DNA of 49,011 bases from a virus (taxonomy: Duplodnaviria; Heunggongvirae; Uroviricota; Caudoviricetes). Shown here piece by piece: positions 1 to 39,320 of the stretch. The DNA lies in the IMG/VR virus record IMGVR_UViG_2687453442_000006; one strand, 5' to 3'. Within the stretch, counting starts at the first letter, position 1. Each line of letters starts with the position of its first letter. The position numbers and the translations under genes are program-made. The notes beneath the pieces were generated by a model. That model did not search any database. It saw only the letters and a program-made list of their open reading frames with translations, and had not been told where the DNA came from.

Positions 1-585
1 CTATTCGATAATGGGTACTGTTGGCCATTCAATATCCTGTGAAGTTGACGTATCAACACGGTTCAGCAATACCCGATACTTTTTCCATGCTTCCAGCAAC
101 GAGATTTCTTCCTCCGTTGCAATTTCCAGATCTGCAGCATCCTGAAGCGGCGCAATATGCTCACTGGCTACCTGCATCAGGTTGTTTTTTATTTCTTCCG
201 CCTCCCGGATCCGGAACAGTTTTTCTGCTTCCGTATCCTTCACCCAGGCTGTGCCGTTCCACTTCTGAAACTCTCCTTCCGGCGATAACCAGGTAACATT
301 TTCCGGTAACGGACCGAGTTCAGAAATAAATAACGCGTCGCCGGAAGCCACGTCATAAACCGTTTTACCCCGATGATCTTCAACGAGATGCCACGATGAC
401 TCATCACTGTTGAAAACAGCCACGAAGCCTGCCGGAATATCTGGCGGTGCAATATCGGTACTGTTTGCTGGCAGACCTGTATGAGGCGGAATATATGCAT
501 CACCTTCACCAATAAATTCATTAGTTCCGGCCAGCAGATTATAAATTTTTATGGTCCGTGGTTGTTCACTCATTCTGAATGCCAT
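1..585 (-). CDS. tfa: Tail fiber assembly protein Tfa (lambda-like)
   Basis: 194-aa track ORF whose stop falls at window positions 1-3; sequence ([24 protein letters not shown]...) matches lambda Tfa as I recall it along its whole length; start overlaps stf stop. Confidence 0.9.
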
Positions 586-32208: not shown

Positions 32209-34191
32209 TTAAGCTGGTTTGCTTATACTTTCTTCGCCAGTGCGTAATCCATCAAATGCCTCATCATTGTCTGCTGATTTGTGAGTTATGGCTTTCTTTT
32301 TATCTGTAGGTATTTCTCTCACATCAGGGCTGAGACTTTGAGTCTCATCCTCAGCAGGAACAACCTCTGGTAACTCCGTTTCTTCTTCGAATGAAACGTT
32401 ATAACCACGCTCTATAGCTACTAGCTTGACCTTTTCATAAAACTCTGTAGAAATCAAGTCAAAAATCGGCATTGATTGCGTCAATATTGTAACTATCTCA
32501 GTTTCATCTAATGCTGATAGCACTTCTTCAGCAATGTCCCATTTTTCTAAAAGTATAGCAGCCCCCAGAGCAAGCCAAGCTTCGTTTTTATCTATCACTT
32601 CATTCAGCACTTCCTCAAGCTCTTGTTGCTGTTTTGCTGAAAGCGGCTGCTTTTGTAATTTGTTGCAAAGAACTCTATTTATAAGCAATAACTGCTTATG
32701 TTTAGACGGTATTGTTCGGGATTCAAGTATGTCCATAAGGCTATTCGCAATTTTGAATTTTTTAGCATCCATTAAGTCCACTAATCCATTTACAAGCTTG
32801 CCAACTTCACCATCATTCATTTTGTTATAACTTGTTATTCTTTCTATTGACTTTTGTATTTCAGAATCATTATCCAAATGAATATAGGAACGAAGTATTA
32901 ATACTTCTGTTTCGAGAGATTTCCCATTAGCCAGATGTTTAGTAGCATATTCTACACATTCATTATACTCTCCAGCACGAAATGCAGAGTTTGCAATCAA
33001 ATAATTGGGGGTATTATAAAAATGAATCCCCTCAGGAGAACCAGCAAATTTAGTTTCCTTTAACATTATTTCTAAAGATTTAGTGATCGAATTATCATCT
33101 AACGATGAGTCTTTCTCTGAAAGAAGTACTTTTATTTTTTTTACAAACTGGCTTACTGTATTCACTCTCCTGACATGATCAGCAAGATTATTCATATCTC
33201 TTTTAATAATCTCATGCTGGACATCTGCGTCATCTTCTTCAGCTATAGAGAAATATCTATCTAGTTTATTAGATAATGCAGAGTATGGCTCTACTACCTC
33301 TTGCTGCAAATTACAGCCTAATGCGTAATGTAATTCAGCCATGAACTCATCAAATCCATTAATTTTAATAAGATGAAAATGAGGAAAGCGGGCCAGATTT
33401 TTAAGTTGCTCAGAAAGTTTTTCAGTGTCTGAGTCACGGATACACCAATAAATCCCATGAGGAAAACAACTACCGGAATGCAATAACGTATTGAGAGTAT
33501 CCATAATTGAACGGTCGTGTCCCGAGTACCCAATAACGATCATGCCAAATTCAGTTGCAAACTGTCTAAATTTGGCCCTCATGTTATCTTCAAGTGACTC
33601 AAGCTCCCTTATAGTATTCTTGATATTGTCAAATAAAAAATCACCATGTAATTTTATTATTTTTGGCCGAGCTGTGGTTAAACGTATGCTGTTGATACTT
33701 GAATCGTGGGCACACACTATTGGTCTCAGATTATTAGAAAAGGTAAAGCAAGCTTCATTGACTAAATCATCGAAGTTAGTCGTAAAAATTGTATTAAAAT
33801 GGCCTTTATCCAATAGATTTGTGAGATAAACGTATCCCCAAGATGGTTTAGCTGCGGTAATACAACTTTCAATAAATTCTCTTCTTTGAGTTGGTTGATC
33901 ATATAATGCTTCAAAAAGCTCTGAATACTCATTATCTTTATCGTACCAAACTTGTTTTTTGAGAGCATCTTCTCCATACATTAGAGTGTAAGCATCTCTC
34001 CAGCGCCTTATCATCCCACCAGCACTATCAACACCACTTGAGATACTAGCACCTGCACCAAGAAAAAGAGTAAAATTTGGATGATGTTGTTTGGTTGAAG
34101 TCAGGATGTTAATTAGGTGCTGCTGTGGTCTAATTTTCATATATATACCGAGACATTCCATGAAAGTTATCATCGGTTCCATATGATACAC
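32209..34191 (-). CDS. SIR2-like (SIR2_2 family) NAD-binding protein with C-terminal helical domain; candidate anti-phage defence NADase
   Basis: 660-aa ORF; N-terminal half has sirtuin-like motifs in order: FTLFLGAGASISSGV, TTNFDDLVNEA, KIIKLHGDF, IVIGYSGHD; C-terminal about 350 aa Leu/Glu/Lys-rich helical with acidic tail; strongly AT-rich; true start uncertain (several in-frame GTG/ATG). Confidence 0.7.
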   Translation of the reverse strand: MYHMEPMITFMECLGIYMKIRPQQHLINILTSTKQHHPNFTLFLGAGASISSGVDSAGGMIRRWRDAYTLMYGEDALKKQVWYDKDNEYSELFEALYDQPTQRREFIESCITAAKPSWGYVYLTNLLDKGHFNTIFTTNFDDLVNEACFTFSNNLRPIVCAHDSSINSIRLTTARPKIIKLHGDFLFDNIKNTIRELESLEDNMRAKFRQFATEFGMIVIGYSGHDRSIMDTLNTLLHSGSCFPHGIYWCIRDSDTEKLSEQLKNLARFPHFHLIKINGFDEFMAELHYALGCNLQQEVVEPYSALSNKLDRYFSIAEEDDADVQHEIIKRDMNNLADHVRRVNTVSQFVKKIKVLLSEKDSSLDDNSITKSLEIMLKETKFAGSPEGIHFYNTPNYLIANSAFRAGEYNECVEYATKHLANGKSLETEVLILRSYIHLDNDSEIQKSIERITSYNKMNDGEVGKLVNGLVDLMDAKKFKIANSLMDILESRTIPSKHKQLLLINRVLCNKLQKQPLSAKQQQELEEVLNEVIDKNEAWLALGAAILLEKWDIAEEVLSALDETEIVTILTQSMPIFDLISTEFYEKVKLVAIERGYNVSFEEETELPEVVPAEDETQSLSPDVREIPTDKKKAITHKSADNDEAFDGLRTGEESISKPA

Positions 34192-36583: not shown

Positions 36584-36811
36584 TTAGGCGGCAGAATTAC
36601 TCGCGTTAAACAATGGTGCGAGGTCGGGACGAATATCTGCTGGTTTAATCTTTCCACCAGTGGCTGAGACAATTTTCATTACATAGCGGGCATCAATTCC
36701 GCCACCGTGTAGCCAACGCCAAACAGTGGGCTGGGCTACACCGCATAGATCTGCCAGTCGTTTTTGACTACCTGTAATACTGATTGCGAGTTGAATGGTT
36801 TGATTTGTCAT
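36584..36811 (-). CDS. cro: Cro-like HTH regulator (YdaS/Cro family)
   Basis: 75-aa ORF MTNQTIQLAISITGSQKRLADLCGVAQPTVWRWLHGGGIDARYVMKIVSATGGKIKPADIRPDL...; helix-turn-helix signature; divergent from cI across an operator region. Confidence 0.7.
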   Translation of the reverse strand: MTNQTIQLAISITGSQKRLADLCGVAQPTVWRWLHGGGIDARYVMKIVSATGGKIKPADIRPDLAPLFNASNSAA

Positions 36812-36921
36812 TATTAATTCCTATTGGTATTACAATAAATAAATAATAGCAATACGTATTAATCATAACAATAGCAAAACGTGTTTTGACCATCAATACG
36901 CAAGCGTATAAATTAAAACTT
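36812..36921. promoter_or_regulatory. Immunity control region (oR/pR/pRM analogue) with repeated AATAGCAA(T/A) operator-like motifs
   Basis: Divergent cI/cro intergenic region; motif AATAGCAATACG / ACAATAGCAAAAC repeated; TTGACC ... TATAAA elements placed so that the cI ATG lies just downstream of the predicted start (near-leaderless, as at lambda pRM). Confidence 0.5.
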
Positions 36922-37614
36922 ATGAAAAAAGAAACTCTTGCTGATCGCTTAAACCTAGCGATGGAACAATCTGGAATGTCTCAAGGCGCTCTTGCAAAGG
37001 CGTCTGGCGTAGCTCAACCCACAATCTGGAGACTGACAAGCGGCAACGCGCGCGGCTCAACAAAAATTGTTGAAATAGCTAATGCATTGGGTGTTCGAAC
37101 AGAGTGGCTCTCATCAGGCATAGGCCCGATGAGAAATGACGGTCAACAATTAGGGAAGCCTACTGCCAACCATCCCAAATACTTCAAGATTGACGTTCTT
37201 GATATAGAAGTGAGTGCCGGGCCGGGAGTCATCAACCGTGAGTTTGTAGAAGTTCTACGCTCGGTTGAGTACTCGTTTGACGATGCTCGTCACATGTTCG
37301 ATGGTAGGAAGGCAGAAAATATCCGCATCATTAACGTACGCGGTGACAGCATGTCAGGAACGATTGAACCTGGTGATCTTCTATTCGTTGATATCACGGT
37401 TAAATCTTTCGACGGTGATGGTATCTATGCGTTTCTGTACGACGACACAGCCCATGTAAAGCGCTTGCAAATGATGAAGGATAAGCTGCTGGTTATCTCT
37501 GATAACAAAAGCTACTCACCGTGGGACCCGATCGAGAAAGATGAGATGAACCGGGTATTTATCTTCGGGAAAGTTATTGGGAGCATGCCGCAGACGTATA
37601 GGAAGCATGGATAG
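36922..37614 (+). CDS. cI: CI-type prophage repressor (HTH plus LexA-like S24 peptidase domain)
   Basis: Track ORF 36886..37614 (TTG); ATG at 36922 (MKKETLADRLNLAMEQSGMSQGALAKASGVAQPTIWRL) preferred; N-terminal HTH; C-terminal S24 motifs (RGDSMSGT..., KRL); divergent from cro. Confidence 0.85.
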   Translation: MKKETLADRLNLAMEQSGMSQGALAKASGVAQPTIWRLTSGNARGSTKIVEIANALGVRTEWLSSGIGPMRNDGQQLGKPTANHPKYFKIDVLDIEVSAGPGVINREFVEVLRSVEYSFDDARHMFDGRKAENIRIINVRGDSMSGTIEPGDLLFVDITVKSFDGDGIYAFLYDDTAHVKRLQMMKDKLLVISDNKSYSPWDPIEKDEMNRVFIFGKVIGSMPQTYRKHG

Positions 37615-37682
37615 TACCAATTAAAAATTATCAACCGGGCATTGTGCTCATTCAGTAAAACAACTTAATTATTCATTTTAGA

Positions 37683-38756
37683 ATGGAGAACTTAATGGAT
37701 ACTTTAAAATATGAGAAATTCTCTGATTTTGATCACAATGACCCATTTTTTGACTCTTTAAAAAAAGATTATAAAGAGTTTCCTCTTTGGTTAGAAAAAA
37801 AAGCCAGAGAAGGAGAATCAGCTTATGTGCTCTATGATGACAAGCATAAAATCGAAGGTTTTATGTATCTAAAAGAAAATGATGATGCAAATGACATTAA
37901 TCCAGCGCTCCCACCAGGACGTCATCTAAAGATAGGAACATTCAAATTTGAATCTAAAGGCACCCTTCGCGGACAACGATTTCTAAAAAAAGCGTTTGAC
38001 CATGCATTTTCATCAAAATCTGATGATATTTATGTTACTGTTTTCGACAAACACGTCCATCTAATAAAACTTTTCCAAACGTACGGATTTTACATTCATG
38101 GTGAAAAAGAAACACATAACGGGAAAGAGTTTGTATATGCGAGGTCTTTGCATGAGCCTTATGGTGATATTTTATTAGATTACCCTCGAATAATGACATC
38201 AAGGGCCAACAAATATTTACTGGCGATTTATCCCGAATATCACACTAGACTATTCCCTGATTCAAAACTTGTAAATGAATCACCAGATATTGTCAAAGAT
38301 ATATCCCATGCTAACAGCATTCATAAAATTTACATATGTGGAATGCGTTCTGTGATGGGAATGAAAAGAGGAGATATCATTGTCATCTATAGAACCGGAG
38401 ACAAAAAAGGGCCAGCTCGCTATCGTTCTGTAGCCAGTACATTATGTGTAGTTGAGAGCGTAAAAAATATTTCTGAATTTTTAAGCGAAGATAGTTTTGT
38501 AGACTATTGTATTCGTTTTAGCGTATTTTCTGAAGATGAACTCAGAAAAATCTATAAAGAACGTCGATACCCTTTCATTATAAGATTCACATACAATCTG
38601 TCTTTGCCAAAGAGACCCAATCGTGCTATTTTAATAGATCATGTGGGGCTAAATGGTTCGCGTGCATTCCGATGGAGTCACTTTAAACTCACAAATGAGC
38701 AGTTCTTAAAGATCATCGAGTTAGGCAAGATAAATGAAAGTTTTATTATCCATTAA
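37683..38756 (+). CDS. Two-domain protein: N-terminal acetyltransferase-like (GNAT-like, tentative) plus C-terminal PUA-like (ASCH/EVE-like) domain; first gene of rex-locus cassette
   Basis: 357-aa AT-rich ORF; N-terminal 160 aa has a GNAT-like beta-alpha pattern (HLKIGTFKFESKGTLRGQRFLKKAFDHAF ... DIYVTVFDKHVHLIKLFQTYGFYIHGE); C-terminal half resembles PUA-like beta-barrels (KYLLAIYPEY ... GDIIVIYRTG ... VASTLCVVESV); domain calls are pattern recognition only. Confidence 0.55.
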   Translation: MENLMDTLKYEKFSDFDHNDPFFDSLKKDYKEFPLWLEKKAREGESAYVLYDDKHKIEGFMYLKENDDANDINPALPPGRHLKIGTFKFESKGTLRGQRFLKKAFDHAFSSKSDDIYVTVFDKHVHLIKLFQTYGFYIHGEKETHNGKEFVYARSLHEPYGDILLDYPRIMTSRANKYLLAIYPEYHTRLFPDSKLVNESPDIVKDISHANSIHKIYICGMRSVMGMKRGDIIVIYRTGDKKGPARYRSVASTLCVVESVKNISEFLSEDSFVDYCIRFSVFSEDELRKIYKERRYPFIIRFTYNLSLPKRPNRAILIDHVGLNGSRAFRWSHFKLTNEQFLKIIELGKINESFIIH

Positions 38757-39111
38757 GCCTGAGTTTGCAGAAAAAATATTGAACGGAACAAAGCGGTTCG
38801 AGTTTCGTAAAGGTATATTCAAAAATCCGCAAATTAGCACCGTTGTTATTTATGCCACGATGCCATTAGGTAAAGTTGTTGGCCAATTCCGTATTGAATC
38901 AATACTAAGTGACGAACCGGAATCTCTTTGGAAAAAGACGGAAAAACACGCAGGTATTTCTAAGCAATTTTATGACTCATATTATTCAGGTAGAGAAAAG
39001 GCCTACGCAATAAAAATTGGTGAAGTGGAAAGATATAAAGAACCAATTCCTATCTCTGCTCTAGGTAGTAATATTAAGCCACCACAATCATATCTTTACC
39101 TACCTGCGTAA
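38734..39111 (+). CDS. ASCH-domain protein (PUA-like superfamily); second gene of rex-locus cassette
   Basis: 125-aa ORF MKVLLSIKPEFAEKILNGTKRFEFRKGIFKNPQISTVVIYATMPLGKVVGQFRIESILSDEPESLWKKT... follows the ASCH domain pattern; overlaps the upstream gene by 23 nt. Confidence 0.65.
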   Translation: MKVLLSIKPEFAEKILNGTKRFEFRKGIFKNPQISTVVIYATMPLGKVVGQFRIESILSDEPESLWKKTEKHAGISKQFYDSYYSGREKAYAIKIGEVERYKEPIPISALGSNIKPPQSYLYLPA

Positions 39112-39113
39112 GA

Positions 39114-39142
39114 ATCCCGGCCACCGTGCCGGGTTTTCTTTT
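39114..39142 (+). terminator. Rho-independent terminator after the ASCH gene
   Basis: Hairpin cccggccACCGtgccggg followed by TTTTCTTTT immediately after the ASCH stop; coordinates approximate. Confidence 0.55.
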
Positions 39143-39239
39143 GTCCCCTCATCACACAAACCGTTCGAAAAACCACCACATCCTCCCTTCAGTTATCGCT
39201 ATGCGATGCAAGTCACAAAATTAATTCTTTTTGCTATCA

Positions 39240-39320
39240 AACAGTTAATATCAAAACACATCAATCAATAGCAATAAGTATTGATACAGCCAATAGCAAT
39301 AGCTATTATTACCATGTCGC
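39240..39320 (+). promoter_or_regulatory. Candidate oL/pL region (operator-like AATAGCAAT repeats)
   Basis: Same AATAGCAA(T/A) motif as in the cI/cro intergenic region (CAATAGCAATAAGTATTG, CCAATAGCAATAGCTATT), with dyad symmetry, upstream of the early-left genes. Confidence 0.45.

Follow-up and report, generated by a model that had tools for sequence, protein, structure and literature searches.

The 49,011-nucleotide (nt) sequence of IMG/VR virus record IMGVR_UViG_2687453442_000006 (Caudoviricetes), the whole of which is referred to here as the window, carries a compact two-gene cassette directly downstream of a cI-type repressor gene. Two plus-strand open reading frames (ORFs) were confirmed at 37683..38756 (357 amino acids) and 38734..39111 (125 amino acids), with a mutual overlap of 23 nt and the second gene in the +1 frame relative to the first. 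An initial annotation of the sequence had placed the pair 68 nt after cI on the same strand, and the ORF coordinates bear this out, with the repressor ORF ending 68 nt 5′ of position 37683. By sequence comparison, the cassette is an already described element: it is PDC-M11 of PADLOC, belongs to the GNAT-EVE/ASCH operon class, and has been named GevTA. Its genes are referred to here as gevT and gevA, and its features are as follows.

37695..38756, plus strand: gevT-like gene, putative toxin, GNAT-PUA-like fusion (353 amino acids; 357 amino acids from the upstream ATG at 37683)
37695..38159, plus strand: GNAT acetyltransferase domain (GevT residues ~1-155)
38187..38753, plus strand: basic PUA-like (EVE/ASCH-like) beta-barrel domain (GevT residues ~165-353; pI 9.6)
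38734..38756, plus strand: 23-nt overlap of the 3′ end of gevT with the 5′ end of gevA (+1 frame)
38734..39111, plus strand: gevA-like gene, putative antitoxin, ASCH protein of the GKER subgroup (125 amino acids; Pfam ASCH, 2.5e-8)
38785..38808, plus strand: ASCH octapeptide GxKxxExR (G18, K20, E23, R25), unchanged in 40/40 homologues

The cassette also stands out by composition. The GC content by position was 0.31-0.40 over 37650-39150, compared to 0.44-0.57 in the adjacent cI, replication, and recombination genes (means, ~35% in the cassette and ~52% in the flanks), consistent with the earlier remark that the pair is more AT-rich than the phage backbone. The 357-residue reading frame first assigned to gevT exists, but translation probably begins at the ATG at 37695, which yields 353 residues. 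This start is favored because GGAG lies 6 nt upstream of it, no Shine-Dalgarno sequence precedes 37683, and most homologues are 350 to 357 amino acids long and align from that methionine.

Profile searches identified both gene products over their full length. PADLOC profile PDC-M11A matched the product of gevT with an E value of 2.1e-133 (residues 6-356 on profile positions 10-356 of 357), and PDC-M11B matched GevA with an E value of 6.8e-52 (residues 1-123 on positions 1-122 of 132). PHROG matches were similarly strong (phrog_6345, 1e-186, for gevT; 1e-57 for gevA). Because of these matches, both proteins are considered, at the level of sequence, true family members rather than the products of chance ORFs. 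General-purpose databases were less informative: a Pfam search with GevT gave no match, an NCBIfam search with GevT gave GNAT matches only, far below threshold, and an NCBIfam search with GevA gave only the unknown domain of an L22 fusion model, far below the cutoff.

GNAT-EVE/ASCH operons were predicted to be toxin-antitoxin systems by Bell, Wolf, and Koonin in 2020, following Iyer in 2013, and none had been tested as of 2020 (PMC7641849). In this class, an EVE domain lies at the C terminus of the GNAT domain, sometimes with a PIN domain at the N terminus, and an ASCH gene is almost always found in the operon, often together with an AAA_17 ATPase gene; prophages of beta- and gammaproteobacteria frequently carry fusions of this type, for which the ASCH partner is obligatory (PMC7641849). 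The window cassette has the N-terminal GNAT domain, the fused C-terminal domain of the PUA superfamily, the adjoining and overlapping ASCH gene, and the full-length PDC-M11A/B matches of the class, as well as its gammaproteobacterial prophage habitat. It differs from the class in nothing substantive, with the optional AAA_17 and PIN components absent from the window copy.

The cassette is also present at 99-100% identity in phages Lambda_4C10, 4A7, D2, 1W, 3W, IdasGreatGrand, and PhiR47_2. In PhiR47_2 (PV340567.1, a 2025 GenBank record), the 99.2%-identical copy is annotated "GevT toxin" and "GevA antitoxin", where "Gev" presumably denotes GNAT-EVE. This record probably comes from the ECOR temperate-phage study of Brenes and Laub (2025); two articles citing that study are silent on the system. 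The annotation agrees with the earlier guess of a toxin-antidote pair. The accompanying statement that the pair was not any named defense system did not hold, given PDC-M11, the class predictions of 2013 and 2020, and the name GevTA in the public record.

Profile and structure-model comparisons supported the domains first proposed, GNAT and a PUA-like barrel for gene 1 and ASCH for gene 2. The AlphaFold (AF2) model of GevT has two domains (predicted local distance difference test [pLDDT], 87; predicted template-modeling score, 0.84). A profile of 40 GevT homologues matched the GNAT enzyme PaiA (1tiq) with an E value of 2.7e-5, and the residues invariant among the homologues include a motif-B-like Y130-G131-F132, H120, and an R92-G93-x-R95 loop. 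In structure comparisons with the C-terminal barrel, ZmASCH ranked above any EVE entry among the matches listed. The barrel retains residual sequence similarity to GevA over the first strand and helix (hhalign E value, 1.7e-4), where KYLLAIYPEYHTRLF is aligned with KVLLSIKPEFAEKIL. Its octapeptide is degenerate (PDSxLxxE), without a conserved in-register lysine, and the pI is ~9.6 for the barrel and GevA alike.

The AF2 model of GevA was of high confidence (pLDDT, 96), and the profile of its family matched ZmASCH (5guq) with an E value of 4e-18. G18, K20, E23, R25, Y40, T42, Y83, Q118, and S119 are invariant in 40/40 aligned homologues, and Y40, T42, Y83, Q118, and S119 align with the RNA-cleft residues Y47, T49, Y90, Q127, and S128 of ZmASCH. 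GevA thus shares its GxKxxExR octapeptide, Lys/Glu dyad, and cleft residues with the GKER proteins ZmASCH, TthASCH, EOLA1, and TRIP4-ASCH. Those proteins bind RNA and, in contrast to GevA, are stand-alone cellular proteins with no GNAT-PUA partner. ZmASCH has been reported to be a Mg-dependent RNase that cleaves single-stranded RNA and not single-stranded DNA, and it binds single-stranded DNA as well as RNA. Assignment of GevA to the YqfB-type amidohydrolases (GK[T/S]R), hinted at in the initial annotation, was rejected, as its octapeptide is of the GKER type; the two groups are set apart in a recent preprint (10.64898/2026.02.27.708502). In the same preprint, all 19 ASCH proteins tested, GKER proteins included, stripped N4-acetylcytidine (ac4C) from tRNA in vitro, and the Lys/Glu dyad was essential.

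The distribution of the pair was surveyed in genomes, where 168 relatives were identified with each species represented by one genome, and in IMG/VR, where 212 contigs encode a GNAT-PUA relative; loci were analyzed for the best 80 of the 168 and the best 80 of the 212. The 80 genome relatives come from gamma-, beta-, and alphaproteobacteria, Bacteroidota, Firmicutes, Verrucomicrobia, Campylobacterota, Acidobacteria, and others. Because they span so many phyla at 43-75% identity, horizontal spread of the pair is indicated by the sequences. At 76 of the 80 genome loci, the GNAT-PUA gene overlaps an ASCH gene at its 3′ end, most commonly by 23 nt, although one of these 76 has an 882-nt insertion between the genes in place of the overlap. 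In viruses, the overlapping ASCH gene was present at 77/80 loci (23 nt in 49 and 29 nt in 20).

The four genome loci without the overlap comprise one contig end, one inverted ASCH gene, and two alphaproteobacterial solo copies. The inverted gene lies directly 3′ of the GNAT-PUA gene in Photobacterium damselae (L015:7059-7457, minus strand). The solo copies, in Rhizobium and Agrobacterium (L073 and L082), are located 1 to 5 kb from a 512-amino-acid relative that is paired with a 263-amino-acid ASCH-containing protein, with the ASCH gene first. A GNAT-PUA "toxin without partner" was considered and rejected, as the candidate cases were contig ends, the one inversion, the one 882-nt insertion, or loci with an ASCH gene nearby.

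The wider GNAT-PUA family, collected at E values up to 1e-3, forms 1421 clusters at 50% identity. Besides the ~350-amino-acid form, it includes proteins of ~500 amino acids with an N-terminal extension and a weak PIN_3 match, and single-chain ("Rosetta-stone") proteins of ~615-620 amino acids with an N-terminal ASCH domain (P0324 and P0338). In one example (P0244; 532 amino acids), a TIR domain precedes the GNAT-PUA region in a chain 49% identical to the window protein. The single-chain fusions argue, from their architecture, that both parts act on one substrate or complex.

Neighboring genes in genomes include S24/HTH repressors, integrases, transposases, KwaB, a DNA methylase, and ResIII and UvrD helicases. 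A P-loop protein of ~175 amino acids, resembling AAA_17, AAA_18, and adenylate kinase and with a weak PADLOC match to VakA (1e-5), is encoded by 13 of 138 immediate genome neighbors. It is the optional third component of Bell et al. (PMC7641849) and is absent from the window. The gene occurs on either side of the pair, 5′ in four loci (L021:5467-5997, L024:5463-5996, L069:5433-5978, and L071:5462-5992) and 3′ in four others (L014:1720-2232, L020:7431-7946, L057:7455-7952, and L067:7434-7961).

In viruses, the 5′ neighbor of the pair is nearly always on the same strand. Among 48 distinct 5′ neighbors, 25 are Cro/CI-type helix-turn-helix (HTH) repressors, of which 14 have an S24 domain; the remainder of the 48 are unknown genes in P2/186-like prophages. 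The order in the latter (for example, in Klebsiella) is CI, an unknown 355-amino-acid gene, the GNAT-PUA gene, the ASCH gene, and int, all on the same strand. The survey of prophages suggested in the initial annotation was thus positive, with the pair found 3′ of repressors in both lambdoid and P2/186-like prophages. The gene between CI and the GNAT-PUA gene in the P2/186-like prophages gave no Pfam match and encodes either 355 to 379 or ~260 amino acids (L085-L090:4909-5976, plus strand; L142:3835-4974; L151:4216-4998). Its ~260-amino-acid form has a weak PADLOC match to DUF3644 (2e-5), and it may represent further cargo or an added component.

The surroundings of the cassette in the window are those of a lambdoid immunity region, seen here in the direction of cI and pL, because cro-, cII-, O-, and P-like genes lie on the opposite strand, and cI, together with bet and exo 3′ of the cassette, lies on the same strand. 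The flanking features are as follows.

36584..36811, minus strand: cro-like ORF (from the ORF list)
36812..36885, no strand assigned: cro-cI intergenic region (oR/pRM-like), between the cro-like ORF and cI, with operator-like CAATAGCAA(T) motifs
36886..37614, plus strand: cI-type repressor (Pfam Peptidase_S24, 1.5e-18; HTH_3, 1.5e-6), labeled cI in PhiR47_2
37615..37694, plus strand: cI-gevT spacer, with GGAG at 37685-37688, 6 nt before the ATG at 37695
39116..39143, plus strand: intrinsic-terminator-like hairpin (CCCGGC..GCCGGG, 39116-39133) followed by a T-run, from the hairpin scan
39260..39310, plus strand: oL/pL-like region, with promoter-like TTGATA-17-TATTAT (39281-39309) between CAATAGCAAT operator-like motifs

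The true start of cI is probably an internal ATG near 36922. The oL/pL-like region was assigned because the CAATAGCAAT motifs around its promoter-like site also occur in the cro-cI intergenic region; the operator-like motifs at 36845 and 36869 were found again at 39266 and 39291. No terminator-like site was found between cI and gevT in the terminator scan. The terminator noted earlier between the cassette and oL/pL is present, but it does not belong to the cassette. The segment containing the terminator and oL (39109-39300) is common to 1232 Escherichia coli genomes, compared to 275 of 5426 complete genomes (~5%) with the cassette, and on the strength of this comparison the terminator is common lambdoid backbone and the mobile unit stops at the gevA stop codon.

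Promoter-like sites were also detected within gevT, one on the plus strand ~100 nt upstream of gevA (38604..38632; 9/12 matches, with TG) and one antisense (38604..38577, minus strand; 10/12 matches). They were left uninterpreted because the promoter scan as a whole was at chance level in this AT-rich stretch (8 sites found and 9 expected). An Rfam search of the cassette gave zero matches. The sole Rfam match in the window was to IS009 (RF02111) at 44..242 on the minus strand, a full-length match of 219 bits.

In phage lambda, the slot downstream of cI holds rexAB. The proposal that the cassette occupies a rexAB-like position was borne out, and the slot between cI and the terminator varies among sister phages. 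In PhiR30_1, it contains the PADLOC candidate PDC-M63 (L003:2138-3492; 8e-36 and 4e-42), and in PhiR70_1, it contains three unknown ORFs without a significant PADLOC match (L002:1965-3487). The likeness to lambda rexA-rexB and to bstA of Salmonella phage BTP1, both cI-proximal exclusion cargo, is positional only: 3′ of cI, on the same strand, and before the terminator and oL/pL, with presumed expression in lysogens. There is no homology to RexAB, as the folds in the window are GNAT/PUA-like and ASCH, and RexB is a membrane protein, whereas GevA is a soluble ASCH protein. RexA and RexB families were not among the Pfam matches of the window proteins.

A second AT-rich ORF (GC content, 0.32-0.38) of 660 amino acids lies at 32209..34191 on the minus strand, directly 3′ of replication gene P in the ren/nin position. 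Its product has an N-terminal SIR2-like domain (GAGAS...TTNFDD...KLHGDF) and matched pAgo-associated SIR2 (5e-63) and PDC-S65 (1e-33) in PADLOC. It is probably a second defense-type moron of the same prophage.

The architecture and family membership of the pair, its conserved pairing and overlap, and its location on the strand of the repressor gene in two temperate-phage families unrelated to each other are established here. We consider it somewhat probable that the cassette is a prophage module of the toxin-antitoxin type, acquired horizontally as cargo of the slot that varies in content between cI and the immunity terminator, that excludes incoming phages. As far as sequence comparisons go, fusion to TIR, candidate status in PADLOC, and location in a hot spot favor a role in defense.

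In such a module, cI, gevT, and gevA would be cotranscribed from pRM in lysogens, and translation of gevT and gevA may be coupled. The GNAT domain of GevT would use acetyl coenzyme A, and the basic PUA-like domain would select a target borne on nucleic acid. The likeliest target would be a tRNA-linked amine, either the alpha-amine of an aminoacyl-tRNA or a base amine, such as N4 of cytidine, and its acetylation would block translation. Charged tRNA or a tRNA base is suggested because GNAT toxins are known to acetylate aminoacyl-tRNA, the nearest folds are alpha-amine acetyltransferases, and the ASCH group acts on RNA. GevA would keep GevT harmless either by hydrolytic removal of the acetyl group or by binding, be it to the ligand that GevT also recognizes or to GevT, a role suggested by its sharing the fold of the targeting domain of GevT and by its intact RNA cleft and Lys/Glu dyad. 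Superinfection or loss of the prophage could then tip the balance and release GevT activity, so that growth would stop and the incoming phage would be excluded.

Several observations weigh against this proposal. The textbook Q/RxxGxG/A motif was not cleanly recognizable in the GevT alignment, the GNAT domain is nearest to PaiA and N-alpha-acetyltransferases, and known GNAT toxins were absent among the matches listed for it. ZmASCH was the weakest ac4C eraser in the ASCH preprint (10.64898/2026.02.27.708502) and is also reported as an RNase. A toxin-first gene order and ASCH-GNAT-PUA fusions in a single chain are unusual for a labile protein antitoxin. Cotranscription from pRM is suggested only by synteny, and the substrate and chemistry put forward for GevT and GevA are proposals from sequence. 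No experimental paper on GevT/GevA, GNAT-EVE, or PDC-M11 was found in the accessible literature, so the toxin and antitoxin labels go back to one GenBank annotation; PDC-M11 appeared in that literature solely in an O157:H7 preprint, where PADLOC had called it, and its status in PADLOC-DB is that of a phage-defense candidate only.

The same pair might instead serve mainly for prophage addiction (postsegregational killing), in which cells that lose the prophage are killed or arrested, and less for the exclusion of other phages. The strict pairing, the overlap suggestive of translational coupling, the location in prophages near integrases and transposases, and an annotation that speaks of toxin and antitoxin and not of a defense system would all be expected of such an element. 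However, related phages have exclusion or defense cargo in this slot (PDC-M63 in PhiR30_1; rexAB in lambda), PADLOC lists the pair as a defense candidate, a close relative is fused to TIR, and KwaB, methylase, and ResIII genes are neighbors elsewhere. We therefore regard addiction as an unlikely, if still credible, account of the cassette; it is compatible with a role in defense, and the two are not mutually exclusive. A more specific version of the toxin-antitoxin proposal is that GevTA is a writer/eraser system for RNA acetylation, in which GevT, targeted by its PUA-like domain, marks tRNA (as ac4C, on another base, or on the aminoacyl amine) and GevA, a paralogue of that domain with the Lys/Glu dyad preserved, removes the mark, with no sequestration involved. 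This version is tentative, and we would not expect it to be correct in this exact form.

Readings with a different substrate or beneficiary appear weaker. It has been suggested by Iyer in 2013 (cited in PMC7641849) that GNAT-EVE proteins acetylate a base, possibly a modified one, in DNA, which ASCH reads or regulates, for epigenetic discrimination of self and nonself or for regulation and not as a toxin of translation. HTH-ASCH and HsdS-ASCH fusions, the linkage of PIN-GNAT-EVE to type I restriction-modification, and the argument that ASCH binds modified DNA speak for this idea (PMC7641849), as does the binding of single-stranded DNA by ZmASCH. Yet the nearest relative of GevA by sequence is this same ZmASCH, which cleaves single-stranded RNA and not single-stranded DNA, GevA has the tRNA-deacetylation dyad, the prophage subgroup of GNAT-EVE is not associated with restriction-modification (PMC7641849), and Pfam detected no DNA-binding HTH in the GevA of the window. 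Thus, DNA base modification seems improbable. Less probable again is counterdefense, discussed by Bell et al. (PMC7641849) for these phage-borne genes, in which GNAT-EVE would aid the phage against restriction or immunity and ASCH would be an accessory or regulator and not a protector of the lysogen: lambdoid and 186-like phages alike have the pair 3′ of cI on the lysogenic transcript, a location that suggests expression in the prophage and not during lytic entry, and many copies are chromosomal, in contexts resembling defense islands outside phages. An ordinary metabolic acetyltransferase, acting for example on polyamines or antibiotics, beside an unrelated gene and with no function in conflict, is very improbable. 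PaiA, to which the GNAT domain has its best sequence match, is a spermidine/spermine acetyltransferase, and source databases call the homologues "N-acetyltransferase", but both the fusion to a PUA-like domain and the obligate ASCH partner with its overlapping gene are kept across phyla, the distribution is patchy and tracks mobile elements at 43-75% identity between phyla, and there are TIR and ASCH fusions as well as the PADLOC candidate match.

The type II systems with a ribbon-helix-helix (RHH) antitoxin (TacAT, AtaRT, KacAT, and ItaRT) resemble the putative GevTA module in having a toxin of the GNAT fold on a mobile element, and acetylation of the amine carried by charged tRNA, suggested by Bell et al. 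(PMC7641849), would by analogy be a plausible shared chemistry. In those systems, a DNA-binding RHH/DUF1778 antitoxin is encoded upstream of the toxin, whereas GevA is an ASCH barrel encoded downstream, and the gene upstream of gevT is cI. GevT also has the additional PUA-like domain and no sequence-level match to these toxins among solved structures. Assignment of gene 1 as a TacT/AtaT-type toxin was rejected on the basis of the different antitoxin type and gene order and the lack of a sequence match. The likeness to DarT-DarG is conceptual only, in that a modifying toxin is paired with an antitoxin that may be a hydrolase, its dyad being intact. DarT ADP-ribosylates DNA, compared to the presumed acetylation by GevT, the folds differ, and reversal of the mark by GevA is a hypothesis.

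As a discovery the cassette adds little, as its class dates from 2013 and 2020, the pair is a PADLOC candidate, and the exact cassette is named in a 2025 GenBank record. It does provide a useful, clean example of how defense-type cargo is exchanged at the cI-proximal slot of temperate phages, with the same pair following the repressor gene both in lambdoid prophages and in those of the P2/186-like type. If the writer/eraser proposal were true, GevTA would be the RNA-acetylation counterpart of DarTG, a prophage-borne abortive-infection switch, and would offer a natural biological role for the ASCH "ac4C erasers". Identification of the target would connect GNAT toxins, PUA-like readers, and the proposed ASCH tRNA deacetylases.

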